Positions 8,034 to 39,882 of a DNA stretch of 55,844 bases are shown here, piece by piece. The notes beneath the pieces were generated by a model. It had not been told where the DNA came from and did no database searches. It was given only the letters and a program-made list of their open reading frames with translations. Position 1 is the stretch's first letter. The number at the start of each line of letters is the position of its first letter. This stretch comes from a virus (Duplodnaviria; Caudoviricetes). Position numbers and translations under genes: made by a program. The DNA is taken from IMG/VR virus record IMGVR_UViG_3300043446_000624, positions 1 through 55,844 of that record. One strand, given 5' to 3'.

Positions 8034-10691
8034 ATGGCTACAAACATGGCCCCCGCGTTGTACGCGGCTCCTATGGGACTCGCAACTCTGGACGACGAGT
8101 CTGATCCGGGCATTGAGATCGAGGTCGTAGATCCTGAGTCGATGACCATCGACATTGATGGTGTGACCATCGAGCTGGAACCGAACGGTAAAGAAGCTAG
8201 CGAGGAGTTCGACGCCAACTTGGCCGAGGGCATGGATGAGGCCGAGCTGATGAAGATCGCGGGCGAACTCATCGAGGATGTGGACGCAGACATCGCTAGT
8301 CGCAAGGACTGGACCGAAGCGTACGTCAAGGGGCTGGAAGTTCTGGGGATGAAGTACGAAGAACGTACTGAACCTTGGACTGGCGCGTGCGGCGTGTACT
8401 CCACCATCCTGACGGAAGCCGCGATCCGGTTCCAGTCAGAGTCCATCATGGAGACGTTCCCCGCAGCGGGCCCCGTGAAGACTGAGATCATCGGCGCAAT
8501 CGACAAGCTGAAAGAGCAAGCGGCCAAGCGCGTTCAGGATGATATGAACTATCGCCTGACTGAAGAGATGCCGGAGTACAGAGCCGAGCATGAGCGCATG
8601 CTGTACAACCTAGGCTTGGCTGGCAGTGCATTTAAGAAGGTGTACTTCGATCCGGGCAAGGGCCGTCAGGTTGCCATGTTCATCCCAGCCGAAGAGATCA
8701 TCATCCCTTACGGCGCGTCGGGGGTTAACTCGGCGGAGCGTGTGACGCAGGTCATGCGCAAGACGAAGAACGAGATTAAGCGCCTTCAGGTTGCAGGGTT
8801 CTATTGTGATGTGGACCTAGGCGAGCCGACACAGCAGAGCACGGACGTCGAGAAGAAAAAGGCGGACGAGCAAGGCTACAGCATCACTGATGATGACCGC
8901 TATCAGATCTATGAAGTGCACGTCACGATGGAGATGCCGGGTGACGAGGACGAGGATGGGATCGCCCGTCCGTACGTCGTGACCATCGACAAGGGCACCA
9001 CTAAGGTCTTGTCCATCTACCGCAACTGGGACGAGGACGACACTCTATATGAGAAGCGTCAGCACTTCGTACAGTATGACTACATCCGTGGCTTTGGCGC
9101 TTATGGTCTGGGTCTGATCCACATCATCGGCGGCTACGCGCGTGCGGGAACCATGCTGATCCGTCAGCTGGTTGATGCGGGTACGCTGTCCAACCTGCCC
9201 GGGGGATTGAAAGCACGCGGCTTGCGTGTGAAGGGTGACGACACTCCGATCGCTCCCGGAGAGTTCCGTGACGTGGACATCCCGTCCGGCTCTATTAAAG
9301 ACAACATCATGGCGCTCCCGTACAAGGAGCCGAGTCAGGTGTTGGCAGGTCTGCTGGATAAGATCACGGAAGAAGGCCGTCGTCTGGGCTCCATCGCTGA
9401 TATGAACGTCAGCGACATGAGCGCCCAAGCGCCGGTGGGTACGACGCTGGCTCTCTTGGAGCGTCAGTTGAAGACGATGGGCGCTGTTCAGGCGCGCGTG
9501 CACGCGGCGATGAAAGAGGAGTTCAAGCTCCTGAAGAACATTATCCGTGACCTGACCCCGGCTGAGTACGACTATGTGCCCGAGGGCGCAGACCCTGTGG
9601 CTAAGCAAGCTGACTACGACATCGTCGAGGTGATCCCGGTCAGCGACCCCAACAGCAGCACGATGGCTCAGCGGATCATGCAGTATCAAGCTGTGATCCA
9701 GTTGGCTAGCCAAGCTCCGCAGATTTATGATTTGCCGTACTTGCATCGTCAGATGATCGAGGTGCTTGGTGTTCGCAACGCGGAAAAGCTTGTCCCGATG
9801 AAGGATGACATGACGCCGCGCGATCCGATCAGTGAGAACATGGCGTTCCTGAATGGCCAGCCGACCAAGGCGTTCATCTATCAGGATCACGATGCGCACA
9901 TCGCTGCTCACACGGCAATGATGCAAGACCCGCTTCTCATGGCGCAGATGGGCCAGAACCCGATGGCTCAGCAGATGCAGGCAGCTATCATGGCTCACAT
10001 TGCTGAACACTTGGCGTTCGCGTACCGCGCGAAGATCGAGAAACAGATCGGCGTTGCGCTCCCGGCACCGGACGAGCAGATGCCCGAGGACGTTGAGGTC
10101 AACCTCTCTCGCATGGTGGCTGAGGCTTCTCAGCAAGTGCTGGCGATGTCCAAGGGACAGGCGGCACAACAGCAGGCTCAGCAGCAGATGCAGGATCCGT
10201 TGCTCCAGTTGCAGATACAAGAGCTGAAGATCAAGGAGCAGGAAGCAGCTACCAAGGCGCAGAAAGTCGAGAACGACAAGATGCTCAAGGAAGCCGAGCT
10301 GGTGCTCAAGGCGGAAGAGATTCATGCCAAGATTGGCATGGATGACCCGGCGATGATCCAGCAGCGTCACGAGATCGAGATGCAGGCGTTGATTGCTCAG
10401 CAACAGCGCGAGATGCAAGCCCATCAACAAGAGATGATGATGAAGCAACAGCAAGCTCAGCAGGCTATGGCGCAGCAACAAGGCGCAGCAGCCGGACAAG
10501 CTGACGCAGCCAAGATGCAGCAAGCGATGCAAGCTCAGCAGCACGCGCAGAAGATGGCACACGGCGGACAGGTCCACGCGCAGAAACTACACCACGCGCA
10601 TGAGGCGCACAAGCAGAACTTGGAGCATCAGAAACAAATAACGGCTGCAAAACCCAAGAGCCAAGCTAAGCCAAAAAAGGGTAATGAATGA
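8034..10691 (+). CDS. portal protein with long Gln/His-rich C-terminal extension
   Basis: Follows terL; GSAFKKVYFD and LVDAGTLSNLPGG portal-type motifs; coiled-coil tail. Confidence 0.9.
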   Translation: MATNMAPALYAAPMGLATLDDESDPGIEIEVVDPESMTIDIDGVTIELEPNGKEASEEFDANLAEGMDEAELMKIAGELIEDVDADIASRKDWTEAYVKGLEVLGMKYEERTEPWTGACGVYSTILTEAAIRFQSESIMETFPAAGPVKTEIIGAIDKLKEQAAKRVQDDMNYRLTEEMPEYRAEHERMLYNLGLAGSAFKKVYFDPGKGRQVAMFIPAEEIIIPYGASGVNSAERVTQVMRKTKNEIKRLQVAGFYCDVDLGEPTQQSTDVEKKKADEQGYSITDDDRYQIYEVHVTMEMPGDEDEDGIARPYVVTIDKGTTKVLSIYRNWDEDDTLYEKRQHFVQYDYIRGFGAYGLGLIHIIGGYARAGTMLIRQLVDAGTLSNLPGGLKARGLRVKGDDTPIAPGEFRDVDIPSGSIKDNIMALPYKEPSQVLAGLLDKITEEGRRLGSIADMNVSDMSAQAPVGTTLALLERQLKTMGAVQARVHAAMKEEFKLLKNIIRDLTPAEYDYVPEGADPVAKQADYDIVEVIPVSDPNSSTMAQRIMQYQAVIQLASQAPQIYDLPYLHRQMIEVLGVRNAEKLVPMKDDMTPRDPISENMAFLNGQPTKAFIYQDHDAHIAAHTAMMQDPLLMAQMGQNPMAQQMQAAIMAHIAEHLAFAYRAKIEKQIGVALPAPDEQMPEDVEVNLSRMVAEASQQVLAMSKGQAAQQQAQQQMQDPLLQLQIQELKIKEQEAATKAQKVENDKMLKEAELVLKAEEIHAKIGMDDPAMIQQRHEIEMQALIAQQQREMQAHQQEMMMKQQQAQQAMAQQQGAAAGQADAAKMQQAMQAQQHAQKMAHGGQVHAQKLHHAHEAHKQNLEHQKQITAAKPKSQAKPKKGNE

Positions 10692-10879
10692 CCGAATTTG
10701 ATCTATTAAGAAAGCAAAACAATGAGCTGCGGGAGCTAGCAGTTAATCAGATGGTGAGCGGAAACGTGCAAAACGTTGAAGCCTATCGTGAATTGGTCGG
10801 TTTTATCCGAGGTCTGGACCGCGCCAATTCCAACATTACAGACCTCGAGAAACGTTTGGAGCAAAACGACGATGAGTGA
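10688..10879 (+). CDS. small conserved head-module protein
   Basis: 63 aa, YRELVGFIRGL motif; translationally coupled. Confidence 0.75.
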   Translation: MTEFDLLRKQNNELRELAVNQMVSGNVQNVEAYRELVGFIRGLDRANSNITDLEKRLEQNDDE

Positions 10880-11273
10880 AATCCTAGTAAGCCAAGACGG
10901 TGCCACATCCACTGTACTTCCCGCCACGGCTGAAGAGAAAGCACGCCAAATCCCTGATCCTGCAACTTTCCACTTACTATGTGTCTTACCGGACATTGAC
11001 GAAGAGTACGAAAGTGGTATTGTCAAGGCTGGCCAGACTCTTCATTACGAAGAGATTCTTTCTCCTGTGCTGTTTGTTGTGAAGATGGGTCCTGATGCGT
11101 ACAAGGACCCAAAGAAGTTCCCCCACGGGCCTTCCTGCAAGGTGGGTGACTTTGTGTTGGTCCGACCCAACACCGGTACCCGCATCAAGATCCACGGCAA
11201 AGAGTTCCGCATCATCTATGACGACTCCGTCCAGGGCGTCGTGCAGGATCCGCGCGGTATTACCAAAGCATAA
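10872..11273 (+). CDS. groES: GroES-like co-chaperonin
   Basis: ESGIV mobile loop, VVKMGP, CKVGDFVLV, GTRIKIHGKEFRIIYDDSVQGVV. Confidence 0.88.
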   Translation: MSEILVSQDGATSTVLPATAEEKARQIPDPATFHLLCVLPDIDEEYESGIVKAGQTLHYEEILSPVLFVVKMGPDAYKDPKKFPHGPSCKVGDFVLVRPNTGTRIKIHGKEFRIIYDDSVQGVVQDPRGITKA

Positions 11274-11284
11274 GGAGTAAAACT

Positions 11285-12684: not shown

Positions 12685-12703
12685 CTTTTTAATGGAGTCA
12701 TAA

Positions 12704-13546: not shown

Positions 13547-13561
13547 TAGGAGTAATTCAAA

Positions 13562-14473
13562 ATGGCTATTTCTCGTGCCCAACTACTGAAAGAACTCCTC
13601 CCCGGCTTGAACGCGCTGTTTGGTCTGGAGTACGCTCGCTACGGCGAAGAACACAAAGAGATCTACGAAACCGAGACCTCTGAGCGTTCGTTTGAAGAAG
13701 AAACCAAGCTGTCTGGCTTCTCCGCCGCTCCGGTGAAGAACGAAGGTCAGGCAATTGCGTATGACAACGCGCAAGAAGCTTGGACTGCTCGCTACAACCA
13801 CGAAACCATCGCTATGGGCTTCGCCATTACGGAAGAAGCAGTGGAAGACAACCTGTATGACAGCTTGTCCAGCCGCTATACCAAAGGTCTGGCTCGTGCT
13901 ATGGCGTACACCAAGCAAGTGAAAGCAGCTGCGATTCTGAACAACGGTTTCAGCTCTGCTTATACCTACGGTGATGGCGTGTCGCTGTTCTCTACCGCTC
14001 ACCCCCTGGTGAACGGCGGAACCAACAGCAACCGTCCTTCCACCGGTGTTGACCTGAATGAAACGTCGTTGGAAAACGCCGTGATTCAGATCGCTGGTTG
14101 GACGGACGAACGCGGTCTGCTGATCGCTGCCAAGCCCAAGAAGTTGATTGTTCCGCCGAGCCTGATGTTCGTCGCTACCCGCCTGCTTGAAACCGAGCTG
14201 CGCGTTGGTACCACCGACAACGACATCAACGCTCTGAAGAACAACGGTTCGATCCCTGATGGTTACACCGTGAACCACTATCTGACCGACACCAACGCTT
14301 GGTTCCTGACCACCGACGTTCCTAACGGCCTGAAGCACTTCGTGCGTATGCCTCTGGATACGAAGATGGACGGCGACTTTGATACCGGCAACGTCCGTTA
14401 CAAGGCTCGTGAGCGTTATTCGTTCGGCGTGTCTGATCCTCTGGGCATCTACGGCTCACCGGGTTCGACCTGA
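13562..14473 (+). CDS. major capsid protein (Mu-gpT-like HK97 fold)
   Basis: MAISRAQLLKELLPGLNALFG...GDGVSLFSTAHP...RYKARERYSFG; strong RBS; terminator after. Confidence 0.92.
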   Translation: MAISRAQLLKELLPGLNALFGLEYARYGEEHKEIYETETSERSFEEETKLSGFSAAPVKNEGQAIAYDNAQEAWTARYNHETIAMGFAITEEAVEDNLYDSLSSRYTKGLARAMAYTKQVKAAAILNNGFSSAYTYGDGVSLFSTAHPLVNGGTNSNRPSTGVDLNETSLENAVIQIAGWTDERGLLIAAKPKKLIVPPSLMFVATRLLETELRVGTTDNDINALKNNGSIPDGYTVNHYLTDTNAWFLTTDVPNGLKHFVRMPLDTKMDGDFDTGNVRYKARERYSFGVSDPLGIYGSPGST

Positions 14474-14509: not shown

Positions 14510-14510
14510 G

Positions 14511-15852: not shown

Positions 15853-16056
15853 ATGAAACCCGAAAATGCAGAGTTAATGAAGCAGGTTGGCGACGGGATT
15901 TCCGTCGTTACTGCGGTTGCAACGCTTGCGGAGGTTTTGCCTTCGGTTGCGGCGTTGTTTACGATCGTCTGGACGGGCATGCGTATTGTCGAAATGATTG
16001 CGGGTAAGCCTTTCTCCGAGGTTATCCGCCGAAAGAAAGACGATGCCGAGCAGTAG
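15853..16056 (+). CDS. small membrane protein, possible holin-like
   Basis: Hydrophobic stretch ISVVTAVATLAEVLPSVAALFTIVWTGM and charged C-terminus. Confidence 0.55.
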   Translation: MKPENAELMKQVGDGISVVTAVATLAEVLPSVAALFTIVWTGMRIVEMIAGKPFSEVIRRKKDDAEQ

Positions 16057-16360
16057 TAAGAAGCAGCACAACTTCATGGAAGCCGTGGCCCATAGTCCGG
16101 CATTTGCGAAGAAAGCAGGCGTCCCGCAGTCCGTGGGACAAGAGTTCAGCAAGGCGGACAAGGGCCGCAAATTTTCAAAAGGTGGTAACGTTATGGCAAC
16201 GAAATCTGTAGACGCTGGCATGAGCAAAACCATGCAAAAAGTTAAGACGGCTGCTCCCAGCCGTGACGGTATTGCCCAAAAAGGCAAAACCAAAGGCACG
16301 CAAGTAAAAATGTCCGGCAACAAAATGACCAAGGGCATGAAGCGCGGCGGTAAGTGCTAA
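16043..16360 (+). CDS. small Lys-rich protein with xxGG motifs
   Basis: MPSSSKKQHNFM...KFSKGG...RDGIAQKGKTKG...MKRGGKC. Confidence 0.75.
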   Translation: MPSSSKKQHNFMEAVAHSPAFAKKAGVPQSVGQEFSKADKGRKFSKGGNVMATKSVDAGMSKTMQKVKTAAPSRDGIAQKGKTKGTQVKMSGNKMTKGMKRGGKC

Positions 16361-16370
16361 GGAGCAGATC

Positions 16371-16622
16371 ATGCCCATGACGCCTCCCAAACCCGCTCCC
16401 AAAATGTATGGGACGTCTGTAACCACCCCCGTGGTTACAAGCGGGCCAACTAGATCGACCCCTGTTTCTGTTGGTACGCCCACTTTTTCGGCTGCGACTA
16501 ACAAAGGCGGTATGTCCAGCGGCACCCCCGTGTTTACGAAAAAATTCGCCAAAGGCGGCTCCGCTTCCAAACGCGCCGACGGGATTGCCAAAAAAGGCAA
16601 GACTCGCGGCAAAATGTGCTGA
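16371..16622 (+). CDS. small Lys/Thr/Pro-rich protein with FAKGG-SKRADGIA motif
   Basis: AGGAG RBS; C-terminal KKFAKGGSASKRADGIAKKGKTRGKMC. Confidence 0.75.
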   Translation: MPMTPPKPAPKMYGTSVTTPVVTSGPTRSTPVSVGTPTFSAATNKGGMSSGTPVFTKKFAKGGSASKRADGIAKKGKTRGKMC

Positions 16623-16630
16623 GGAATATC

Positions 16631-16909
16631 ATGGCAACCAAAAAACAAGCTGGCGCAGGACGTGGATTTGTAAATCCCCAGCGCACCGACGAAACCGATG
16701 CCGAATACATCACGCCTAAACAGCGTTACGACATGGAAAAGCAGCTGGAAGAACAGAAAACCACTGCCCAGACCGAAAAAGCCTATAACGCGGCTGTCGG
16801 CTATAAAAAAGGCGGCATGACGGCATCCAAACGCGCTGACGGTATTGCTCAACGTGGCAAAACCCGTGGCACGATGGTGATGTGCGGCGGCGGCATGGCA
16901 AGGAAATAA
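16631..16909 (+). CDS. small protein with YKKGG-SKRADGIA motif
   Basis: GAGG RBS; GYKKGGMTASKRADGIAQRGKTRG. Confidence 0.75.
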   Translation: MATKKQAGAGRGFVNPQRTDETDAEYITPKQRYDMEKQLEEQKTTAQTEKAYNAAVGYKKGGMTASKRADGIAQRGKTRGTMVMCGGGMARK

Positions 16910-16911
16910 TC

Positions 16912-17166
16912 ATGATGGCCAGTCGCGGTATGGGGGACATCAATCCCTCCAAGATGCCCGGCGCTAAGCGTAAGGCTCGCCGAGATGACACTGACTTTAT
17001 CCAGTATGCTGAAGGTGGCAAAGTCTGGAGCAAACCGCGTCCGGCAGGATTGGGCGATCCTGTCAAACTTTCTCCCAAAAAGAAAGCTCAAGCGAAGGCT
17101 CGCGCCAAAAGCGCGGGTCGCCCGTATCCCAATCTAGTTGACAACATGAACGCAGCAAAGGGCTGA
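16912..17166 (+). CDS. small basic protein with YAEGG motif
   Basis: MMASRGMGDINPSKMP...YAEGGKV...YPNLVDNMNAA. Confidence 0.75.
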   Translation: MMASRGMGDINPSKMPGAKRKARRDDTDFIQYAEGGKVWSKPRPAGLGDPVKLSPKKKAQAKARAKSAGRPYPNLVDNMNAAKG

Positions 17167-17168
17167 AT

Positions 17169-17348
17169 ATGAACCTCGATACCGTACTGAAATGTGCGCA
17201 AATGGCCGCTACCAAGCAAGAAGCCTTCTTGGGTCGCGTGGATCAAGACATCCAAGACCTGATCGCCGAGCTGACCGCGCCTCCCGCGCCCAAGACCACG
17301 ACCAAAAAAGCCGTAGCTGAACCCGTAGCAGAACCTGCAGCGGAGTAA
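17169..17348 (+). CDS. small hypothetical protein (59 aa)
   Basis: Below cutoff: MNLDTVLKCAQMAATKQEAFLGRVDQ...AEPAAE; fills the gap between neighbours. Confidence 0.7.
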   Translation: MNLDTVLKCAQMAATKQEAFLGRVDQDIQDLIAELTAPPAPKTTTKKAVAEPVAEPAAE

Positions 17349-17351
17349 AAC

Positions 17352-18065
17352 ATGGCTGTAACCGGCACTACAACCTTCGATCTCGACTTCGCGGAACTCG
17401 CTGAAGAAGCGTGGGAGCGTGCCGGTCGCGAGATGCGTTCGGGTTATGACTTGCGTACAGCTCGTCGTTCCATGAACTTGATGACCATTGAGTGGCAAAA
17501 CCGTGGCATCAACATGTGGACGATTGACGAGGGGTATGTGAATCTTGTCCAAGGGCAAGCTGAATACGACCTTCCGGCTGACACCATCGATCTGATGGAA
17601 CATGTTGTGCGCACGGGGCAGGGGAACGTATCCACGCAGGCTGACCTGACGATCACGCGTATTAGTGTTTCTACCTACGCCACGATCCCAAATAAGCTAT
17701 CGCAAGCCCGTCCAATCCAAGTTTGGGTCCAGCGTCTTAGGGATAACCCTAAGATTACAGTGTGGCCTGTACCTGATCAGGGGACTGAAGAAGATCCGTA
17801 CTACATCTTCCGTTATTGGAGGATTCGTCGTATTGAGGACGCTGGGGCGGGCGCAGCGACTGAGGATGTGAACTTCCGCTTTTATCCCGCAATGGCTGCT
17901 GGTCTGGCGTACTACATTGCCATGAAGGTTCCCGAGCTGGCTCAGCGTTTGGACATGCTCAAGGCGGTGTATGACGAACAGTTCAACTTGGCTGCTGGCG
18001 AAGACCGCGAGAAGGCGGCGCTAAGACTTGTACCCCGACAGATGTTCGTGGGGAGCGCCACCTAA
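17352..18065 (+). CDS. head-tail adaptor / tail tubular A-like protein
   Basis: EEAWERAG, ARRSMNLMTIEWQNRG, VWPVPD, GLAYYIA motifs; position in module. Confidence 0.65.
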   Translation: MAVTGTTTFDLDFAELAEEAWERAGREMRSGYDLRTARRSMNLMTIEWQNRGINMWTIDEGYVNLVQGQAEYDLPADTIDLMEHVVRTGQGNVSTQADLTITRISVSTYATIPNKLSQARPIQVWVQRLRDNPKITVWPVPDQGTEEDPYYIFRYWRIRRIEDAGAGAATEDVNFRFYPAMAAGLAYYIAMKVPELAQRLDMLKAVYDEQFNLAAGEDREKAALRLVPRQMFVGSAT

Positions 18066-18454: not shown

Positions 18455-18464
18455 GGAGTCGAAC

Positions 18465-18650
18465 ATGGCTAAATCAGATCTGGCGCAAGACAAAGCGATG
18501 ATCAAAAAAGCGTTCAAGCAGCATGATGCTCAAGAACACAAAGGCGGAAAGGGTACGTCCCTGAAGCTGAAAAAAGGCGGACCCACGTCGATGGATCGAC
18601 GCAAAATGGGTCGCAACATGTCCCGTGCGATGAACCAACGCGGAGGTTGA
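18465..18650 (+). CDS. small Lys-rich protein with LKKGG motif
   Basis: AAGGAG RBS; HKGGKGTSLKLKKGG...QRGG. Confidence 0.75.
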   Translation: MAKSDLAQDKAMIKKAFKQHDAQEHKGGKGTSLKLKKGGPTSMDRRKMGRNMSRAMNQRGG

Positions 18651-30290: not shown

Positions 30291-31393
30291 TTTATCTAAC
30301 CCACCACCGAGGTGCTGGCACAAGCCAGACGGAGGTCATTGAGGACAATCCGTATCCCCAGCGGATACATTGGTTCCCCGAGACATACCAAAACGTTAAG
30401 TCAGGTCTTGTTTACCCGGCCCACGTTCTTGCCAACAAAGTCATTGACCCCGCGTTGATCGAGTACGTCCAGAACAATCCCACACCCGGAAAAACTGGAT
30501 TTATTCTTGCTGCTGGATCGCAAGGTTGGGCGGGCATTAGGGGACGTCATGACAACAAAGAAGAAGGACGACTGCACTACAAGTTGAAACTTCCTTTGGT
30601 GACGTTGACCAACATATATGCTGGGCGAGTTGCGTCAATGTTTGGACCTATGGACTATGTTTCCACGGACGCCAGCGCATGTGCCTCTAGCATTAAGGTT
30701 CTGATGGAGGTCCACAACCTGATGACCAATTTTGGTTTTACCAGAATGATCGTGCTTGGGGTGGAAGACGCTGTTAACAACTCAACGCTTGAGTTCTTTG
30801 GCCAAGCCAAGGCCAGCCTGTTGCTCAAAGATGAGCCCAACATCAAGCCATCCGCGTTTGACTCTGTGAACGCAGGGTTCAACATCGGTCAGGGCGCAGG
30901 TTTAGCTATTTTTGAAACTGAACCAGCCACTACACCCGCAGCAAAACTGCTTGGTACCTATACCGCTGCTGAAAACTTCACCAATCCGTTGGGTCAACGT
31001 CCCGACGGCCAAGGGTACATGAGGTCAATAGAGGGCGCTTTACACATGGCCAAGTTGCCTGCATCGGCTGTGCGTATTGTCAAAACACACGGTACTGGGA
31101 CGCCGACTAATAACACTGCGGAGAAGGCCGCGATCACGACAATGTTCAGTGATTTTGTGGCGACTTCATATAAACAGCGTTTGGGGCACACACTTGCTGC
31201 AAGCGGCTTGATGGAAACCAGCATGCTGCTCAGTGATCTGCAACGTGGGGTTATTCCCGGAATTCCAAACAGGACAGAAGATGATGCCGTTTTCTTGTCT
31301 ACCGATGCGCCTGCGCGAGGGGGCGTGATTGCTGTTTTAGCCGCAGGGATGGGGAATGTTTTCTCAACCGCGTTACTGACAACGGAGTTGTGA
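30287..31393 (+). CDS. beta-ketoacyl-ACP synthase (FabB/FabF-like)
   Basis: ASACASS (Cys 30680), GFNIGQGAG, KTHGTGT (His 31088), SYKQRLGHTLAASG (His 31187), AGMGN; ATGA-coupled to ACP. Confidence 0.93.
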   Translation: MIYLTHHRGAGTSQTEVIEDNPYPQRIHWFPETYQNVKSGLVYPAHVLANKVIDPALIEYVQNNPTPGKTGFILAAGSQGWAGIRGRHDNKEEGRLHYKLKLPLVTLTNIYAGRVASMFGPMDYVSTDASACASSIKVLMEVHNLMTNFGFTRMIVLGVEDAVNNSTLEFFGQAKASLLLKDEPNIKPSAFDSVNAGFNIGQGAGLAIFETEPATTPAAKLLGTYTAAENFTNPLGQRPDGQGYMRSIEGALHMAKLPASAVRIVKTHGTGTPTNNTAEKAAITTMFSDFVATSYKQRLGHTLAASGLMETSMLLSDLQRGVIPGIPNRTEDDAVFLSTDAPARGGVIAVLAAGMGNVFSTALLTTEL

Positions 31394-31394
31394 A

Positions 31395-31838
31395 ATGAAA
31401 ACAGTAGACAGCAAAAAACAAAAATTGAATATAGCTGATATTGTTATGCATGACTCAGAAACGTCTAAGTCTGATGTACCCATGCAGCAGCTTATACCTG
31501 CACTTATCCAAGAATTAAATAACCCAAATTGCGCCAGCAGGCAAATAGGTAATTCATTGTTTATTCTTCACAAAGGTGAAGACGGAAAAGGATTTTTTAG
31601 AGGGCTTAACGCAGACACTGCAGAAAACTATATTGACAATATCCGTGAATTTCTTATTTGGGCAAAAGAAGATTTAGGCATGACGTTTTTAATGACTCAG
31701 TTCAAGGGCCAAGAAATCGCACGGATCACAAAATATTTTAAAAAGCATCCGCCTATCCCCGGAATGCAGCATGTAATGTTTAACATGTCAAACGGCGAAA
31801 CCCGACTTGTTTTGCTTTTAGAGCCGATGAAAGACTGA
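31395..31838 (+). CDS. hypothetical protein, possible GNAT-like acyltransferase (T7 gp13 / P22 gp14 positional analogue)
   Basis: 147 aa alpha/beta pattern between KS and first ejection gene; function is inference only. Confidence 0.4.
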   Translation: MKTVDSKKQKLNIADIVMHDSETSKSDVPMQQLIPALIQELNNPNCASRQIGNSLFILHKGEDGKGFFRGLNADTAENYIDNIREFLIWAKEDLGMTFLMTQFKGQEIARITKYFKKHPPIPGMQHVMFNMSNGETRLVLLLEPMKD

Positions 31839-31839: not shown

Positions 31840-34800
31840 ATGGGAAAAAGCGTAACAGATTTTACCGGCGGTCTTTACGACGACATTGCAGACACTGCGC
31901 AAGATATACGCAGTGATGTTATCAACACTGTTCAGGACACAGCTGCTAAGGTCTATGATAATGTCGTATCGCCTGTTGCTGCAACTGCGGTAAACACGAT
32001 TAAAGCCGCCGCGAAGGATCCCATCGGTACGATGGTTACTGTCGCAGTAGCATACGCTGCGCCGCAATATTTGCCGCTGGTTAACGCGGGCAGAACTTTA
32101 GCCAACGGCGGGACGCCGCAAGACGCGTTAAAAAACGCAGCAATTTCGTACGCTGCAACAAATATAGGTAATTACGTTGGAGACCAAGTCACTCCGATTG
32201 AATCGCAAACACTTCAGCAACTAGGCCCACAGTACGAAAACCTTGCGCTGGTAAAACAAGTTGTGTCCGCATCTACAGGCGCGGCTGCGGCGTCTATATT
32301 GCGCGGAGAGCCTGTAAAATTAGTTTTGACCAATGCAGTAACTGGAGCCGTTAACAGCGCGGTAAGTAGCCAGCTTGCAAAAGACTATGGTTTAGCGTCA
32401 GGGTCGTTCGCCAACCAATTAGCGTCTAATTCTATTTCTGCAGCTACTAAAGCGTTGCTGCAGGGTAAACCATTGATGGAAGCGGTAGTTCAGACCGCAA
32501 CAGCCACAGCCATCACGGCGGGTATTACTACGGGCGTAGAAAATCTTAAGGCGTTGTCAAATAAGTCTGTTTCTCTTTCGCAGGAATTTAGTGCTAAAAC
32601 AGGCGTATACAATTCAACTTTAGAAACTGCTAAAAGTCAAATTGCTAATGCTGACAGCTGGGTGACAATGGGTGTCAACACAGCAAATATGTACGCAACC
32701 GATAATGGTAAATATATTGAGGAATATAAAACAGACTACGCCAGATATACAGCGTTAATTGATAAAGTAAATTCCGGTGATTATTCCGGACGGGATAGCG
32801 ATATTGCAACTATCCATACCTTAGAGTCTCAGTTAGGTGTAAAAGCTGACCAAATTGAGTATACTAAACAACAATTTAACGATTGGTCACAAAAAGTTAA
32901 CGATTATGTAGTTCGTCGAACTGAAATTGAAAATACATATCTACCACAACTTTCGACTATGCGCAGCGAATTGGATACGCTGGCAAAAGATTATTTAAGC
33001 GCACAGGATAGTATTAAATCGGTTTCTGAGGATATTGGAACCCAGGTCAAACATTACGAAGATTTTGTCAGTACGGAATCCGCCAAATATGCGGATGAAA
33101 TTGCTGCTGAGGCGGTTAAACAAGCCCAAAGTACGCTTGAAACAAACGCCAAGAGCGTGGGGGCTGATAGTTACGCCACACTTAAACCGTATGTTGATAC
33201 AAAAGTACAAGAGATTGAGGATGTTAAACAGCAGCTTCAGGACCACATGGCTGCTGGCGACTATATTAGCGCGTGGGCAGATAAAAACAAACTAAATGAA
33301 CTTGGAACTAACCTTAATAGTATTGAACGTAAGTTTGATGATTTGGGAGTTGATCTTGGTAATGACGCTAAGGCTGCGGACACTCTTAACTATTCGATGG
33401 ATATCCAAAAAGATATCCTGCCCGGGTTGCAACAGCAACAGCTTCATAATCAGGCCGAGCGCATATATGCACCCCTCGTAGAAGTTGACCTAAAGAACGC
33501 CGCAGACGCGCAACAAAAATTTCAGGACGCAATGGCGTCAGGGGATTACCAAGCTGCAAAACAGGCCTTGTCTGTTATACAGCAATCAACAAAAAATCTA
33601 GACGTCTACGAACAGCAGTACCCAACCGCAAAATTAAGTTACGACGACAAACAAGCGCCGTTCCAAGATTTTTTAGACACTATCGACGTCAAGGCAATTG
33701 ACAAAGGGATTGCGGTACAACGGGCGCAGCCTTGGCTTGATCAATTAACGGCCCGAGCGCAAGCCGCGCAGAACCAGCTTGAACAAGCGCTGGAAAATAA
33801 TGACTTCTATGCTGCCGCATCCGCGCGTAGACAGTTAAACTCCTATATAGACCAAATAAAAAATGTAGACACCAATTATGGGCTTGATAAATACAATATA
33901 AGCACGGACGAGCAAGCGGATCCTTTTAAAAATATGTCGGGTAGTTTCACGGACCAACAAATTGGTAACACTGCCGCCGCGTATGACACTCTAAAGAACC
34001 AAGCCCGGAATGAATTAATACGGCAAGGCTACACTGAATACTACGGAAAAACCCTTCAGCCAAACGCCAGCGCTGAAATAGCGTCGGTTGCCGAGAATTA
34101 TGAAAAACAAATTCAAGACGCAATGGCGTCTGGAGATTATGCTGCTGCGCAAAAAGCCGCTGACGCTTTAAAAAAATGGACAGGTAAACTACAAACCTAT
34201 GAGGGAGTTAGCTTCCAGCAAGATAATCAGGCGGAAGAATATCAAAAATTCCTAGATACAATTGCGCCAGATATTGAAAAAGGGGTTTTAGAACAAACAG
34301 CGGAAAAAGCTACGCCGACTACGCCGACTACGCCTACGCCGCCGACTACGCCGACTACGCCTACGACGCCGACTGAACCTGCGCCTACGACGCCGACTAC
34401 GCCAACGCCAACGCCTGAAGCTACGGACGATGGCACAACTGGCGATATTCAAGACATTATTGACGTAATAAACCCACCGACGCCTGCGCCGACTACACCG
34501 ACTACGCCAACGACGCCAACTACGCCGACTACGCCGACTACACCGACTACGCCAACGACGCCAACTACGCCGACTACGCCAACTGAACCTGAGTGGGTCA
34601 AAGAATATCGAGCAACGCTTAATAACATATATAAACCCGTGCTTGACGCACGTGTGAGGGAAGCGGAAACGTCTAAAGCTAGGCTTGAACAAGCTCTTGC
34701 GGCTGGAGATCCCGCTGAGATTGAGCGCTTTAGCAAGAATCTTCAATCAGATATTGATGCGATTAAAAATGTAGACAACATGTATCGCGTCCAAGATTTT

Positions 34801-35811
34801 AATCTTGGGTGGGACGACAGAGCGACTACGTTTGAAGACTTCTTAGAAACTATTAAGTCGCCCACACCTACGCCGACTACACCAACGACGCCGGACGATA
34901 TGACGCCGGACGATACGACGCCAACTACACCGACGACGCCGACTGAACCTGCGCCAGTCGAGCCAGAACCTGTGCCGACTACACCGACTGAACCTGTGCC
35001 AGTCGAGCCAGAACCTGTGCCGACTACACCGACGACGCCGGACGATACGACGCCGGACGATACGACACCGGACGATACATCCACAGACAATGGTGGATTT
35101 ACAGGGCCGACTGGCCCAATGACTGCTGATCAGATTCAGCGGTACAACGACGAGTTCTCCCGTTATCTGGACTCTTTGACGTCTGGAAGCACGATTCCGC
35201 CCGACTACGATGTCCAAGACCTAGGGATTACCCCAGAAAACTGGGAATCGTTTGACCAAAACCTTCAGCAGATGCTGGAGGAAGGAAAGTTGCCGACTCA
35301 GTGGAAGCCTGGAGACAACGGAGCTTTTACGTATACGGACGATGACGGTAGCACGATTACGATCGATGCAGAAGGCAATATTGTGGGTTACACCGAAGCC
35401 CCCATAGGCAATCTGCCTGGAGAAACTCCGCCTGAAGAAACAACTCCTACGCCAACAATCCCGACTACGCCGGTAACTCCTAAGCCGCCGACAACGCCGA
35501 CTACCCCGACTACCCCGACGACGCCGGTAACTCCTAAGCCGCCGACGACACCGACTACCCCGACTACCCCGACGACGCCGACTACCCCCGCTGGGCCGTT
35601 GGATTTACAGTCACTTTTGGCACTTTTGGGCGCGGTGGGCGGCGGAGACCAAAGTCAGGCCCCGGCGCCCCAAGTTGTGGATATTGGTCAGCAACTGGAC
35701 CTTAGCGCCCCCCTGGAAACAAACCCGTTTGCAAGACAGCAAACTCAATCTAAAATGGCAACTGGCGGGTCTATCGACGATCTGCTGGCAATGCTTCAGC
35801 AGAGAGGTTAA
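31840..35811 (+). CDS. internal virion/ejection protein 1 (N-terminal Gly, helical repeats, Pro-Thr tracts)
   Basis: MGKSVT start; Ala/Gly-rich hydrophobic N-domain; five xxxGDY-type repeats; (TPT)n tracts; C-terminal MATGG. Confidence 0.75.
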   Translation: MGKSVTDFTGGLYDDIADTAQDIRSDVINTVQDTAAKVYDNVVSPVAATAVNTIKAAAKDPIGTMVTVAVAYAAPQYLPLVNAGRTLANGGTPQDALKNAAISYAATNIGNYVGDQVTPIESQTLQQLGPQYENLALVKQVVSASTGAAAASILRGEPVKLVLTNAVTGAVNSAVSSQLAKDYGLASGSFANQLASNSISAATKALLQGKPLMEAVVQTATATAITAGITTGVENLKALSNKSVSLSQEFSAKTGVYNSTLETAKSQIANADSWVTMGVNTANMYATDNGKYIEEYKTDYARYTALIDKVNSGDYSGRDSDIATIHTLESQLGVKADQIEYTKQQFNDWSQKVNDYVVRRTEIENTYLPQLSTMRSELDTLAKDYLSAQDSIKSVSEDIGTQVKHYEDFVSTESAKYADEIAAEAVKQAQSTLETNAKSVGADSYATLKPYVDTKVQEIEDVKQQLQDHMAAGDYISAWADKNKLNELGTNLNSIERKFDDLGVDLGNDAKAADTLNYSMDIQKDILPGLQQQQLHNQAERIYAPLVEVDLKNAADAQQKFQDAMASGDYQAAKQALSVIQQSTKNLDVYEQQYPTAKLSYDDKQAPFQDFLDTIDVKAIDKGIAVQRAQPWLDQLTARAQAAQNQLEQALENNDFYAAASARRQLNSYIDQIKNVDTNYGLDKYNISTDEQADPFKNMSGSFTDQQIGNTAAAYDTLKNQARNELIRQGYTEYYGKTLQPNASAEIASVAENYEKQIQDAMASGDYAAAQKAADALKKWTGKLQTYEGVSFQQDNQAEEYQKFLDTIAPDIEKGVLEQTAEKATPTTPTTPTPPTTPTTPTTPTEPAPTTPTTPTPTPEATDDGTTGDIQDIIDVINPPTPAPTTPTTPTTPTTPTTPTTPTTPTTPTTPTTPTEPEWVKEYRATLNNIYKPVLDARVREAETSKARLEQALAAGDPAEIERFSKNLQSDIDAIKNVDNMYRVQDFNLGWDDRATTFEDFLETIKSPTPTPTTPTTPDDMTPDDTTPTTPTTPTEPAPVEPEPVPTTPTEPVPVEPEPVPTTPTTPDDTTPDDTTPDDTSTDNGGFTGPTGPMTADQIQRYNDEFSRYLDSLTSGSTIPPDYDVQDLGITPENWESFDQNLQQMLEEGKLPTQWKPGDNGAFTYTDDDGSTITIDAEGNIVGYTEAPIGNLPGETPPEETTPTPTIPTTPVTPKPPTTPTTPTTPTTPVTPKPPTTPTTPTTPTTPTTPAGPLDLQSLLALLGAVGGGDQSQAPAPQVVDIGQQLDLSAPLETNPFARQQTQSKMATGGSIDDLLAMLQQRG
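34309..35590 (+). repeat. 9-bp coding tandem repeats (CCGACTACG variants) encoding (PTT)n
   Basis: Four tracts at about 34309-34420, 34470-34590, 34860-35080 and 35440-35590. Confidence 0.9.
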
Positions 35812-35813
35812 TT

Positions 35814-37922
35814 ATGCCGTATGACTATGTAACAGGTGAGTGGTACGATGATGGTACTGATGACACGCCTGTACCTACGCCCACTCCAACCTACAACTGG
35901 TACGATGCTGGCTCAACCGACACAACTCCAACCACGACTACGCCAACAGTTGAGCACGGGTATTACTCCGAAGATACCGGAAAGTGGGTTGCCGATCCAA
36001 ATGGGCCGCTGCAGAGGCCGCTCACCAACGAGACTTCGGGCACAGGAGCCGTCGGTAACTACACCACCGTGCAACGGTTTGATGATGGCAGTACGCTCAT
36101 CATGGACAAAGATGGCAACGTCGTTGGTTCCACTCCCGCTACGGACTTTCTTACTGGAAAAGTAGACACTTACGAGCCAAGCATCAGCGACCAGATTAAA
36201 AATCTTGGTAGCACTGCCGTAAACGCAATCAAGGGCTATTTTCAAAAGAAAGATGCCCAAGGCAACCCCATCCCCGGCCAATACGACTGGGCAAAAATTG
36301 CCGGTGCGGGCGTGGCAATGTACGGTGCGTTGGGCGGTAGCAAGCCTCAACAAGGTGGCTGGCAGGGTTCTATCCCCAACCTTACCGCATCACGCGAACG
36401 AATTAACTACAACGACCCCAACCGCCGCCCCGGCGCACAAGGCCGTCAGTACTTCACTGATGTGAATTATTCAGGAGCTTCTACAGCTCCGCAGGCTCAA
36501 GGCATTCTCGCCAATTACACCCCGGCAGCTGCTCCCGCTTCCAAATGGAACGCTACAAACGCAGTTGCCACGCCCTGGAATAAACCTACTGTTGCGGCCC
36601 CCACTGCTGCCGCTCCCGCATTTATGACCCCTGAGCAAACACTTGCGGCAGCACGCCCTAAAGAAACAGCCCCCGCGCAGCAAGAAATTGTTCAAGCCGC
36701 TATGGGAGGTATCATGCCTCTTGCCAAGGGACGCTATCTCCAAGGCGCAACCGACGGTATGGCCGACAAGATAAATACATCAATTGACGGCAAACAGCCC
36801 GCACAGCTAAGTCACGGCGAGTTTGTGATCCCTGCTGACGTGGTATCCCACCTTGGTAACGGTAATAGTGACGCCGGGGCCAAAAAGCTGTACTCTATGA
36901 TGGACAAGGTGCGACAGGCTCGCACGGGGACCAAGAAGCAAGGCAAGCAGATCAATCCAGATAAATACATGCCCGGAGGCACTGTGAACAAATACGCTAA
37001 AGGCGGCATTGCTGCGCTTCCAACTAAAAAATTTGCAACGGGTGGTACTTCCGGCCCTGCAGCCGATACCACGACTACGTCCACTCTGTCCCCTTGGGCT
37101 GGTGACTACGTTGCTAACATGCTGGGCAGAGGTCAAGCTCTAGCTACCGCTCCGTATCAAGCCTATACGGGTCCGCTGACTGCGGGCGCATCTGACTTGC
37201 AACAGCAGCAATTTGCTGGAATTTCCAACTTGGCGCAGACAGGTTTGGCCCCCACGCAATACAGCACCGGTACGTTTGGTACGCCGCAAGCTCAACAGTA
37301 CATGAACCCGTACCTGATGACCGCGTTGAATCCTCAGCTGGATGAGATGAAACGCCGTTCGCAGATCAACCTGCAACCTGACTTGGCAAAACTGACTCAA
37401 GCCGGCGGCTATGGCGGCGGGCGTCAGGCTATCATGATGAGCGAAGCTAACCGCAATTTGTTATCCGAACAAGATAAAGCTGTGGGTCAAGGCTACGCCA
37501 CCGCATATGACAAGGCTATGGGTCAGTTCAATGCAGACCAACAACGCGCCTTGCAAGCTCAACAGTTTCAGCAGGCCGCTAACGAGGCGTCGGCTAACTA
37601 CGGACTCAAGTCTCTTGACGCTTTGGGTCAGGCGGGTCAAACGCAACGTGGCATTGAGTCTGAAGGACTTGCCGCAGACAAGGCTCAGTTTGAAGAGCAG
37701 CGCGACTATCCGTACAAGATGGTCCAATACCAGCAGGGTCTACTCCAAGGCTTGCCGATCTCGACGCAGAGCAACAACACGAATATGTCCACCATTACAA
37801 ACTTGCTGGCAAGTCTGGGTTATGGGCAACAATTCACTAACTTGCTAAACGGCCTGCCCGCTGACGGTAAAACTACAACATCCCCCGGAGCGACCGCCAC
37901 TAAATCCGCTGGAGTGACCTAA
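35814..37922 (+). CDS. internal virion/ejection protein 2 (SHGEFV domain plus Gln-rich DNA-transfer-like domain)
   Basis: GATDGMAD...LSHGEFVIPADVV domain; GG-rich linker; YMNPY...AGGYGGGRQA domain. Confidence 0.75.
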   Translation: MPYDYVTGEWYDDGTDDTPVPTPTPTYNWYDAGSTDTTPTTTTPTVEHGYYSEDTGKWVADPNGPLQRPLTNETSGTGAVGNYTTVQRFDDGSTLIMDKDGNVVGSTPATDFLTGKVDTYEPSISDQIKNLGSTAVNAIKGYFQKKDAQGNPIPGQYDWAKIAGAGVAMYGALGGSKPQQGGWQGSIPNLTASRERINYNDPNRRPGAQGRQYFTDVNYSGASTAPQAQGILANYTPAAAPASKWNATNAVATPWNKPTVAAPTAAAPAFMTPEQTLAAARPKETAPAQQEIVQAAMGGIMPLAKGRYLQGATDGMADKINTSIDGKQPAQLSHGEFVIPADVVSHLGNGNSDAGAKKLYSMMDKVRQARTGTKKQGKQINPDKYMPGGTVNKYAKGGIAALPTKKFATGGTSGPAADTTTTSTLSPWAGDYVANMLGRGQALATAPYQAYTGPLTAGASDLQQQQFAGISNLAQTGLAPTQYSTGTFGTPQAQQYMNPYLMTALNPQLDEMKRRSQINLQPDLAKLTQAGGYGGGRQAIMMSEANRNLLSEQDKAVGQGYATAYDKAMGQFNADQQRALQAQQFQQAANEASANYGLKSLDALGQAGQTQRGIESEGLAADKAQFEEQRDYPYKMVQYQQGLLQGLPISTQSNNTNMSTITNLLASLGYGQQFTNLLNGLPADGKTTTSPGATATKSAGVT

Positions 37923-37923
37923 G

Positions 37924-39882
37924 ATGCAAACAAATTACGATCGTCAAGCCAAACTAGCGCAGTCAGCTGGTTTGCCCCAGCTTCAGGCGTTGTCCCAAGG
38001 GGCTAATCCTCGTCAAGTACGACCGTTTGTTGCTCTTGGTGAACTCAATGCGCGTATGGCCCAGATGCAGTCCGACAAGATGTTGCAAGGTGCAGCGCCT
38101 CCAGGGTCTATGCCGACTCTGCGGGAGAAAATTGAACAGTCTCTTCAACAGCTAAAAGCGCAAGCGGCACAACAACAAGCTGCGCAACAGGCTCAACAGC
38201 AGGCCCCCGGTATGTTTCAAGTGCCTGAAGGCACTCCTACGCCGCAGATGCAGCCCCAAGCTGAAGAGATGGCGCAGGCTCCCGCCGATGACGCAATGCA
38301 GATGTATTCTGGTGGCGTGGCTCGTTTGCCCGTAGAGGATCGGATGTTTGGTTACGCCAACGGCGGCATTATTTCGTTCTTTGACGGCAAACGTCCTGAA
38401 GACAAAAAAGATTACGAAGGGCCAACTGACGCGGACATTCAAGAGCAACTAGATCGTCTAGACCGGGAAGCCGGGGTTGTAAGGGATGAAAACGGTCGGC
38501 CCGTAAGAAGAGCCGCTCCTGCCCCTGCGCCAAAAGAAGAAGCTACATCTTTAGCTGGTGACGTTGGTCGAACCGTCGGTCAAGGGATCATGTCCGCAGC
38601 GGGAGCAGTTGGCGATTGGTGGTCAGATTTGACCCGTAAAGGCGAGTTGAACCGCGAACGCTTGCAGCAAGTCCCGGGGTTATTTGAAGAACTTACACCG
38701 TCCCAACGTGCGGCACGCATGGCCCGCATGAAAGAGCTTGGTCAGCAGATGGATAGCGTTTCATCGCCGACGCCTACTGCAGCACCTGCACCTGCCCCCG
38801 CTCCAAAACCTGTCGTTGGTGTAAGTCCAGATCAAGCTGCGGCAGCTCGGGCAAGCTTTGCGGCGACTGATCCCCGTCGAGTGGGGATTGCGACTCCTCC
38901 ACCCAGCAAAGTTGTTCCTCCCACGACAAACGCTCCCGTAAATGCTGGCGATGCAGGCGGGGCTGGTGGTGGCGCATCTACAATGGATGATCTAAGAAAG
39001 ACTTTGATTGAAACCCTTAAGCTACCAGGGTACAAGCCTTCTACACCCAAGTCCGTTGAAGAGCTGGATAGAGAAAAGCAAACCTTTGTGGATAAACAGC
39101 CAACCTCTGCGGAAGCTCAGGCGCTGATGAAGCACTACGATGCAATGGCTAAACGCTACGCCGCTAATGACGAAGCAGAAAAAGCCCAGCAAGCACGGAA
39201 CGCTAGTAACAATCTGGCAACGTTTCTAATGAACACGCGTGGCGGCAGTCTTGGAATTGCTGCTGGTAAAGCAAACGCGGCTCTTCAGCCGTTGCTTGCG
39301 GATCAAGAAACCCGACGTCAGACCTTCCAGAAATTGCGCGATGAACAAGAGATGCTTCTTGGCAAGTCTCGTTATGAGCTTGCTCAAGCGGAACGCGCAC
39401 GCAAGGAAGGCCGCTTTGACGACGCCCGCAAGCACCAGCTGGAAGTCCAAAAGGCGGAAACCGAGATTGCCAAGATTGAAGAACAGCGTCGTGGTCACGT
39501 TTTGACTGGTGGTGTTGGTCTGTTGAATGCTGAGGAGCAAAAACGGTATCACAACATTTTGGCTGGGCAAAACGCAGAAACCAAAAGAGAAAATCAGCGC
39601 CGCTTTGACCTTCAGATGGGTCAAAGACAAGACGAACTGGATGAGCGTATCCGTAATAACAAATTAAACAATCAGCGATTGCTGAGAGACCTTAACAAAA
39701 ACATCGACGCCGCAAGAGTGAAGCTGTCTAGGCTGCCCAAGGATTCCAAAGAACTCGCCCCCATGCGAGAAGAACAGGAAGCTCTGATCCGTGGCTGGCA
39801 AGAAGAAAAACAGATGCTGCTTGATGAAATTAATAGGCCAACCGGGTATGATCCATCCAAGGTCCGAAAAGTCGGGAACTAA
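37924..39882 (+). CDS. internal virion/ejection protein 3 (coiled coil)
   Basis: Gln/Pro-rich N-terminus with MYSGG and YANGG; long coiled coil. Confidence 0.72.
   Translation: MQTNYDRQAKLAQSAGLPQLQALSQGANPRQVRPFVALGELNARMAQMQSDKMLQGAAPPGSMPTLREKIEQSLQQLKAQAAQQQAAQQAQQQAPGMFQVPEGTPTPQMQPQAEEMAQAPADDAMQMYSGGVARLPVEDRMFGYANGGIISFFDGKRPEDKKDYEGPTDADIQEQLDRLDREAGVVRDENGRPVRRAAPAPAPKEEATSLAGDVGRTVGQGIMSAAGAVGDWWSDLTRKGELNRERLQQVPGLFEELTPSQRAARMARMKELGQQMDSVSSPTPTAAPAPAPAPKPVVGVSPDQAAAARASFAATDPRRVGIATPPPSKVVPPTTNAPVNAGDAGGAGGGASTMDDLRKTLIETLKLPGYKPSTPKSVEELDREKQTFVDKQPTSAEAQALMKHYDAMAKRYAANDEAEKAQQARNASNNLATFLMNTRGGSLGIAAGKANAALQPLLADQETRRQTFQKLRDEQEMLLGKSRYELAQAERARKEGRFDDARKHQLEVQKAETEIAKIEEQRRGHVLTGGVGLLNAEEQKRYHNILAGQNAETKRENQRRFDLQMGQRQDELDERIRNNKLNNQRLLRDLNKNIDAARVKLSRLPKDSKELAPMREEQEALIRGWQEEKQMLLDEINRPTGYDPSKVRKVGN

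Follow-up and report, generated by a model that had tools for sequence, protein, structure and literature searches.

A recurrent Gly-Gly motif in small basic proteins and probable ejection proteins of an uncultured short-tailed phage: a probable processing or docking joint

This study examined a short Gly-Gly motif, [FYML]-[AKS]-x-G-G, in the proteins of an uncultured short-tailed phage represented by one whole IMG/VR virus record (IMGVR_UViG_3300043446_000624) of 55,844 bases with an estimated completeness of 88%, hereafter the window. The recurrence of the motif is real in two sets of proteins, namely small basic proteins and three large probable ejection proteins, and the sequences suggest a probable role as a joint, for processing or docking, in proteins that are ejected from the virion along with the DNA. 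We assign a probability of about 0.4 to the reading, drawn by analogy, that the motif is a joint element of ejected proteins that would mark cut sites used during or after assembly. The nearest known thing would be the cut Gly-rich stretch of siphophage tape measure proteins, as in lambda and T5. The proteins that keep the motif are encoded as follows:

16043..16360, plus strand: gp16043, a small basic protein of 105 amino acids with an isoelectric point (pI) of 10.6; KFSKGG at 16172-16186 and C-terminal GMKRGGKC at 16337-16351.
16371..16622, plus strand: gp16371, a small basic protein of 83 amino acids, pI 10.9; KFAKGG at 16545-16559, followed at a fixed spacing by the C-terminal module SASKRADGIAKKGKTRGKMC.
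16631..16909, plus strand: gp16631, a small basic protein of 92 amino acids; GYKKGG at 16802-16816 and the same C-terminal module as gp16371.
16912..17166, plus strand: gp16912, a small basic protein of 84 amino acids; QYAEGG at 17005-17019.
18465..18650, plus strand: gp18465, a small basic protein of 61 amino acids that ends in GG; KLKKGG at 18567-18581.
31840..35811, plus strand: gp31840, a probable ejection protein of 1323 amino acids, acidic and rich in Thr and Pro; KMATGG at 35755-35769, 13 residues from the C-terminus.
35814..37922, plus strand: gp35814, a probable ejection protein of 702 amino acids; AAMGG at 36696-36710, a conserved core, YMPGG at 36966-36980, KYAKGG at 36993-37007 and KFATGG at 37032-37046.
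37924..39882, plus strand: gp37924, a probable ejection protein of 652 amino acids; MYSGG at 38302-38316 and GYANGGIISFF at 38353-38367.

In the 60 called proteins of the window, the motif was matched 14 times against 4.76 ± 2.14 times in per-protein shuffles, and none of 500 shuffles reached 14; the motif of the original prediction is thus enriched over a composition-matched background. The form [FYM][AKS]xGG was found 12 times against 2.65 in shuffles, and K[FYM][AS]xGG 6 times against 0.07. The plain GG dipeptide was not enriched in the same proteins (149 against 132.6 ± 10.3, with 30 of 500 shuffles reaching 149), and the strict motif had no match in the 19 minus-strand proteins. All of the peptides listed by the original prediction are present where it had placed them, and most of them fit the pattern that it gave, with the exception of VMCGGG, AAMGG, YMPGG and MYSGG; AAMGG and YMPGG, though off-pattern, coincide with GG positions that are nearly invariant among homologues. 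The strict pattern was also matched by three peptides that had not been listed, FKFGG (24449), LANGG (32098) and YADGG (47083). Since the pattern was defined post hoc from the same sequence, conservation is the real test.

For conservation, 80 loci around relatives of the capsid protein and 80 around relatives of gp35814 were fetched, and their open reading frames (ORFs) were called crudely as greedy longest ORFs and assigned to the window proteins by BLASTP, which gave 2614 distinct ORFs. In these relatives, which are not independent of one another, the motif was observed 66 times against 2.8 expected for gp16043, 35 against 1.8 for gp16371, 18 against 0.9 for gp16631, 17 against 0.5 for gp16912, and 5 against 0.3 for gp18465. 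Among the large proteins, the corresponding counts were 25 against 5.5 for gp31840, 99 against 14.8 for gp35814, and 39 against 2.5 for gp37924. The motif was not enriched in the relatives of the terminase (0 against 1.7), the scaffold candidate (0 against 0.3), the capsid protein (1 against 2.9), the adaptors (0), the tail protein encoded at 26716 (2 against 6.2) or a giant polyvalent protein (7 against 15.0), and the reversed pattern was flat in every gene set. These data demonstrate that the motif is conserved in diverged relatives only in two sets, the five small basic proteins (16043-18650) and the three large proteins. The low counts in the capsid, terminase and scaffold families and the empty minus-strand set also agree with the claim of the original prediction that the motif is absent from the capsid and replication proteins.

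The span proposed by the original prediction, comprising the portal, the small basic proteins and the ejection proteins, was upheld for the latter two sets and not for the portal, where the single instance is as follows:

10554..10568, plus strand: KMAHGG in the C-terminal tail of the portal.

The portal family gave 7 motifs against 3.0 expected, and none of 52 distinct orthologous portals carries the motif in its last 110 amino acids; KMAHGG is therefore most likely a chance match. The YADGG of the polyvalent protein (47083-47097) is likewise not conserved, and the portal and polyvalent-protein instances were ruled out as parts of the system, as neither is kept in relatives. LANGG in gp31840 (32098-32112) also looks like a chance match.

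The recurrence was found in database relatives as well, with 293 motifs against 16.3 ± 3.8 expected in 240 relatives of gp16631 and 251 against 35.1 ± 5.9 in 150 representatives of the gp35814 core, each from a different 50%-identity cluster. More distant phages with the same head genes showed little enrichment, with 7 motifs against 3.3 in HTVC023P, 3 against 2.4 in CRP-902, and 4 against 1.9 in RW. All four Gly codons and all four Ala codons occur at the motif. Because the codons are free to vary, selection acts on the protein.

The five small proteins have pI values of 9.8-10.9 and are assembled from few modules that are shuffled among relatives. In 155 distinct relatives, F, Y or M stands three places before GG in 217 of 339 GG dipeptides, and the logo reads K-K-[M53 F24 Y21]-[A48 K46]-[K41]-G-G-[K/S]-[V]. 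The motif was found between modules A and Z in 8 of 8 cases, between C and Z in 4 of 4, and between E and Z in 110 of 126. It lies 5-8 residues before the C-terminal module, whose consensus is S-A-S-S-R-A-D-G-[I/C]-A-x-[K/R]-G-K-T-[K/R]-G-K-x-[C/V]; of 292 cases, 281 have a GG within 16 amino acids upstream of this module and 250 have the strict motif. The gp16631 family comprises 1034 matches at E ≤ 0.001, with more than 1000 unnamed metagenomic members, and its GG is invariant; no name or Pfam domain was found for it, and its longer relatives also lack an informative Pfam domain. In a sample of 30 members, G61, G62, D70, G71, G76 and T78 are invariant. The module thereby shows the pattern GxxxxGKT (D70 G71 x4 G76 K77 T78), and a P-loop nucleoside triphosphatase (NTPase) was ruled out for it, as it is a tail of about 25 residues in proteins of 60-100 amino acids with no surrounding domain. 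Pfam, NCBIfam and PHROGs gave no name for most of the small proteins.

The C-terminal module often carries a Cys, either inside (ADG-C-A) or at the extreme C-terminus, with 210 modules having it in the tail only, 25 internally only, 5 at both places, and 44 at neither. In two families, 30 of 51 proteins have Cys as their last residue, compared with 58 of 2504 among the other ORFs. The N-terminal 43-residue module of gp16043 (MPSSSKKQHNFMEAVAHSP..) is shared, at 56-72% identity, with phiKZ ORF 165.1 and with jumbo-phage proteins that carry a virion-structural annotation (121Q gp51), again at their N-termini, and matches were seen in 115 phage records.

The three large proteins are acidic or neutral (pI 4.3, 5.8 and 8.8), and their logo reads [Y42 M42 F14]-A(91)-x-G-G-[I42]-[V/A/I]-x-[F]-x-x-G-G. 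No known family was found for them in Pfam, NCBIfam or PHROGs, gp35814 had no sequence match in the PDB, and the ESM Atlas gave only viral hypothetical clusters. In gp31840, KMATGG precedes an amphipathic SIDDLLAMLQQRG tail. Proteins encoded upstream of gp35814 often finish with x-A-x-G-G and an amphipathic Leu-rich tail; the strict pattern was found in 8 of 59 distinct tails, and the relaxed x-A-x-G-G, read by eye, in about 20 of the 33 tails that are not halves of a split gp35814. The motif of gp37924 is a conserved island in a low-complexity stretch with 25% mean column identity, in which only the two Gly are invariant, and the family consensus is [MYF]AxGGI[IV]xFxxGG.

The placement of the motif is fixed around the core of gp35814, which reads RYLQG..SHGEFVIPADVVSHLGNGNS..LYSMMDKVR and is followed by a linker holding YMPGG, KYAKGG and KFATGG. 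The family has 12,811 cluster representatives at E ≤ 0.001, and its consensus, RYLxGxTDGMAD..LSHGEFVIPADVVSHLGNGNSDAGAKKLYxMMDKIRxARTG..INPDKFMPGG, has the motif on both sides. Of 149 representatives, 80 have the motif 40-50 residues ahead of the GEFV anchor and 134 have it 50-70 residues beyond, and this layout is retained in the homologues of Pag-Yong1 and Caulobacter phage RW. An AlphaFold2 model of the core from 37 sequences had a predicted local distance difference test (pLDDT) score of 53.7, with the motifs below 50, and was too poor to use; the core is conserved, yet it is not predicted to fold alone. In 29 distinct relatives, gp35814 is encoded as two genes that are split at the linker with the downstream motifs. 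The N-terminal halves end in ..K-[F/Y]-x-P-A where the fused forms read P-G-G and keep the upstream motif in 24 of 29, and the motif occurs in none of the 29 C-terminal halves. From the gene position, the N4-like giant protein encoded nearby and the PHROG labels on the N-terminal module of gp16043, we infer that the motif-bearing proteins are carried in the virion.

The parallel with tape measure proteins concerns lambda gpH, which is processed to gpH* and gpHC, and T5 pb2, which is processed to pb2* and pb2C. Residues 733-784 of lambda gpH read FATGG-F-TGTGG-KYEPAGIVHRGEFVFTKEATSRIGVGNLYRLMRG-YATGG-YV, in the same order as gp35814, namely [F/Y]-A-x-G-G, then HxGEFV..G.GN..LY..M, then Y-A-x-G-G-[Y/L]-V; gp35814 thus has [F/Y/M]-A-x-G-G on both sides of an HxGE[FY]V core in one polypeptide. 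The motif-GEFV-motif layout, with both flanks kept, was also found in the diverged tape measure proteins of Arthrobacter phage ArV2, Pseudomonas phage PSA-2T and Klebsiella phage IME268, and the lambda gpH stretch matches tape measure genes in 1005 phage records. A word-index search with gpH 715-815 gave no diversity, as all of the 120 listed proteins were copies from E. coli with about 100% identity. The Pfam family Tape_meas_lam_C covers gpH 627-701 and ends before the motif-GEFV-motif stretch (733-853), which is in no Pfam family.

Both tape measure proteins are cut. T5 pb2 is reported to be cut after R1127 (PMC10038345), and the T5 record reads ..NSFVPR up to the cut and AEGGMMYPGVSYQMGEHGTEVVTP.. 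after it, so that VPR is followed by AEGGMM..GEHGTEVV. The cut therefore lies directly before A-E-G-G and is preceded by Arg, not by F, Y or M. Lambda gpH is described as losing about 14 kDa from its Gly-rich region, and the 2025 Ur-lambda paper gives the exact cut site and the catalyst as unknown (PMC12617516). The cut falls somewhere in a Gly-rich stretch that holds A-I-G-G, A-S-G-G and A-T-G-G, and the computed fragments are 14.8 kDa for a cut before AIGG, 14.1 kDa before ASGG, and 12.5 kDa before ATGG. The C-terminus of gpH, MRDGGLFSGGGR, has a further Gly-Gly pair at the tip that is seen bound to gpI (PMC12617516).

The two kinds of protein would also be alike in being ejected ahead of the DNA, provided that gp35814 is carried in the virion. 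They differ in that gp35814 is a podophage protein with no ruler role and with weak support for homology, and in the spacer between the first motif and GEFV, which is about 35-40 residues in gp35814 and about 12 in tape measure proteins.

In the preferred reading, [M/F/Y]-[A/K]-x-G-G would form the core of a joint element in which a bulky residue acts as anchor and is followed by a small residue and by Gly-Gly as a turn, and which opens conserved segments following disordered linkers. In the large proteins, the motif continues as GG-[I/L/V]-[V/I/A]-x-[F/Y], and in gp35814 it brackets the HxGEFV core in the order seen in siphophage tape measure proteins. The proteins may then be cut as T5 pb2 is, during or after assembly, which would split apart modules that have their own genes in other phages and would free short basic C-terminal peptides from the small proteins. 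Candidate proteases include a host enzyme, self-cleavage, and a zincin-like domain in the giant neighbour of the ejection genes:

39886..47526, plus strand: polyvalent protein of 2546 amino acids with an N4 virion RNA polymerase-like N-terminus and FtsK-gamma and LPD38 domains.
About 42976-43875, plus strand: zincin-like domain of this protein, with HELTH at 43306-43320 (residue 1141).

The giant protein qualifies as a polyvalent protein as described by Iyer et al. 2017, since it has LPD38, FtsK-gamma and the N4 virion RNA polymerase-like N-terminal part, and it resembles the proteins of that report in the HExxH domain as well. In 29 sequences of the domain, H111, E112 and H115 are invariant, and E177, 65 residues further on, is at least 90% conserved. 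The model of the domain (pLDDT 70.9) has a three-strand sheet followed by the HExxH helix, and VIA-align gave a modest match to the lethal-factor catalytic domain (Z 8.3, root mean square deviation 4.0, 151 residues aligned), together with a PhiM1 ejectosome chain (Z 7.9) and the Pro-Pro endopeptidase PPEP-3 (Z 6.1). In the 57 loci that extend 7.4 kb or more beyond the gp37924 homologue, a giant ORF always follows it, with HExxH in 50 cases. The conserved residues and the model indicate that the HExxH...E zincin-like domain is intact. Zincin-like domains of polyvalent proteins have a proposed role, itself a prediction, in protein processing inside the head or following injection (Iyer et al. 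2017, PMC5512222); here, the case differs in that the giant protein does not itself keep the motif, and nothing ties the domain to the Gly-Gly motif. The original prediction was right that no classical prohead protease is visible, as judged from PHROGs and Pfam scans of the called proteins, but this domain sits in the neighbouring protein.

The grounds for ranking a processing site first are the position of the cut in T5 pb2, the approximate position of the one in lambda gpH, the relatives in which gp35814 is split into two genes at its linker, and the location of the motif between modules of the small proteins. A number of points weigh against it. No cut has been shown for proteins of this phage or its relatives, and a cut has been mapped at the residue level for T5 alone, not for lambda, and the Arg that opens the T5 site does not fit the strict pattern. 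A cut would achieve little at motifs only 2-6 residues from a C-terminus (GMKRGGKC), and the gp35814 linker has three motifs within 30 residues. Conservation of the residues after GG, together with an upstream motif whose spacing to the core persists when the gene is split (24 of 29), fits a bound or folded element as well as a cut site. The comparison of the gp35814 core with gpH by hhalign was weak (E 2.9e-4 over 26 columns, probability 40%), a HMMER profile of the core scored 1.2 bits on gpH, no better than shuffles (maximum 10.7), and the same profile gave no signal above shuffles on T5 pb2. Foldseek with the zincin-like model found nothing at E < 0.1. Lastly, lambda gpH is cut without any virion zincin; therefore, the zincin-like domain as the protease for the motif is only a guess.

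A docking tag without cutting was placed second, as a possible but doubtful alternative to the processing site, in view of the conservation after GG, a spacing to the core that holds in split genes too, the copies at termini, the poor predicted fold of the isolated core, and the binding of the gpHC C-terminus. In this reading, a short strand or helix beginning with the bulky residue and the Gly-Gly turn would attach by strand addition to a partner common to these proteins. The scaffold, the inside of the capsid, the portal and a second ejection protein are candidates for this partner, and the binding would load the proteins into the procapsid or hold the ejection complex together, much as encapsulin targeting peptides or the T4 capsid targeting sequence do. 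Such a tag would account for motifs that are islands of conservation in variable low-complexity stretches, as in gp37924, for a core and motifs that are conserved at low pLDDT, which is typical of segments that fold on binding, and for tandem copies, which would give avidity. In lambda, only the C-terminal residues of gpHC are reported as resolved, bound to gpI (PMC12617516), and encapsulin cargo peptides are described as containing Gly, sometimes repeated, and lying in disordered termini and between domains (PMC8346489). The tag is harder to reconcile with the separately encoded C-terminal half of gp35814 and with the polyvalent protein, which is expected to be packaged too, as neither keeps the motif; moreover, there is little enrichment in the distant phages with the same head genes, and no partner is known. 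A structural hinge or nucleic-acid-binding element, with neither a cut nor a specific partner, is unlikely. In the small proteins, KK-[MFY]-A-K-GG and the S-A-S-S-R-A-D-G-x4-G-K-T-[KR]-G module would bind DNA phosphates and help to condense or escort the genome, and in the large proteins Gly-Gly would be a mere flexible turn. The high pI of the small proteins, the invariant D, G, G and T of GxxxxGKT, one Cys per module inside or at the C-terminus, and the fixed spacing between motif and module speak for it; however, the large proteins are acidic or neutral and lack basic residues beside their motif, so strict a retention of the bulky residue and Ala is not expected of a plain hinge, and a Walker-like pattern in a 25-residue tail is not an NTPase domain.

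It is very improbable that the motif reflects chance or composition, or a DNA-level repeat serving recombination between modules. The pattern was defined after looking, the proteins are rich in Gly, Ala and Lys, and the portal, LANGG, FKFGG and YADGG instances look like chance matches; on the other hand, no composition-matched shuffle reached the count, the reversed pattern is flat, and the motif is conserved across cluster representatives. A DNA-level repeat or recombination signal was ruled out by the codon variation and by a blastn search of 16000-17200 against the phage collection, which found no DNA similarity. Beyond the processing reading itself, we regard it as quite unlikely that motif, HxGEFV and motif form a single ancient processing module, found both in the tape measure proteins of siphophages and in the ejection proteins of podophages, that cuts itself or is cut by a host enzyme of wide occurrence. 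In that case, each small basic protein would be a polyprotein in miniature, and its cleavage at this joint would free Cys-tipped, phosphate-loop-like peptides of about 20 residues that ride on the DNA, as a phage counterpart of adenovirus core maturation.

The original prediction had likened the motif to the Gly-Gly cleavage sites of adenovirus and African swine fever virus, and this analogy fails on spacing. The adenovirus protease AVP is reported to need M, I or L at P4 of (M/I/L)XGG, with the cut between GG and X (PMC4246237), whereas the bulky residue of the window motif is at P5; the place two before GG is Ala in 91% of the large-protein motifs and Ala (48%) or Lys (46%) in the small ones. 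A Ulp1-type protease (PF02902, the one clan CE family searched) was not found in the record, which is 88% complete, and the PHROGs and Pfam scans of the called proteins named no protease. The adenovirus basic core proteins pVII, pre-mu and pVI belong to an unrelated virus lineage; they are like the window proteins in that small basic proteins and large internal proteins have Gly-Gly sites, and cutting would release short basic peptides. A strictly conserved Cys is described for pVIc (PMC4246237), which resembles the Cys of the C-terminal module. The notion of a maturation-protease site thus loses the adenovirus-type spacing, and the idea of processing survives through A-x-G-G at the T5 pb2 cut and in the Gly-rich stretch of lambda gpH.

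The T4 capsid targeting sequence is a short N-terminal cargo motif that is removed by the prohead protease, and the window phage differs in that no such protease was detected in the scans. Encapsulin targeting peptides are short motifs in the disordered ends or linkers of cargo of HK97-fold shells, as the window motif would be, and both the peptides and the T4 sequence are unrelated to the motif in sequence. The idea of a tag on everything packaged in the head, which the original prediction had put forward, proved too wide, as the portal, the polyvalent protein and the separate C-terminal half of gp35814 (0 of 29) do not keep the motif.

The motif was not described in the literature searched on HTVC023P, Pag-Yong1, Caulobacter phage RW and ejection-protein motifs, and no name for the Gly-Gly/GEFV element of tape measure proteins was found in the literature searched. 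What appears to be new here is a processing or docking joint common to tail-borne and head-borne ejected proteins that extends to a large family of small basic proteins. The site and mode of the lambda gpH cut have been open since 1974, and the conserved A-x-G-G joint is a concrete candidate site, present in tape measure proteins as well as in a podophage family that comprises at least 12,811 sequence clusters. If true, the joint would tie tail-borne to head-borne ejected proteins, and it offers a handle on many unnamed small basic proteins of the virion region in abundant uncultured freshwater and marine phages.

The window phage is kin to podophages of the Pag-Yong1/HTVC023P type. Its plus-strand block at 6513-47526 encodes a large terminase, a portal of 885 amino acids with a long Gln-rich C-terminal tail, a GroES-like protein, a coiled-coil protein as the scaffold candidate, the capsid protein, two SU10-type adaptors, and tail and lysis genes, and four very large proteins close the block. 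The capsid gene is placed as follows:

13562-14473, plus strand: major capsid protein, Mu gpT-type.

The capsid protein is 74% identical to those of Planktothrix phage Pag-Yong1 and Synechococcus phage MinM2, 64% to that of Pelagibacter phage HTVC023P, 55% to that of Roseobacter phage CRP-902, and 40% to that of Caulobacter phage RW, and close relatives are encoded by more than 600 IMG/VR contigs. PHROGs and Pfam scans of the called window proteins detected no prohead protease family, and a tRNA scan of the record found none. The GroES-like gene (10869-11273) lies between the portal and the scaffold candidate and matches phrog_3188 (4.7e-8), with Pfam Cpn10 under the cut-off; such a gene is also annotated in Pag-Yong1, HTVC023P, CRP-902, RW and the Alcaligenes phage.

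Immediately upstream of the ejection genes, at 29997-31838, there are an acyl-carrier-protein-like gene, called by eye from a DSLD motif, a beta-ketoacyl synthase gene (PF02801, 3.5e-17; PF00109, 1.7e-9) and a nameless gene of 147 amino acids. This trio is scarce in relatives, with BLASTP matches in 4, 1 and 8 loci, respectively, and it could hint at acylation of virion proteins. A comparison of gp31395 with the GNAT genes of CRP-902 and the Alcaligenes phage gave no real similarity. The product of 24546-25577, a protein of 343 amino acids, has 42 GG dipeptides in long Gly runs, without the motif, and is probably part of a tail fibre. Amid the replication genes and far from the head block, the minus-strand gene at 51791-52210 matches a 'minor head protein' PHROG (phrog_13900, 3.9e-23).

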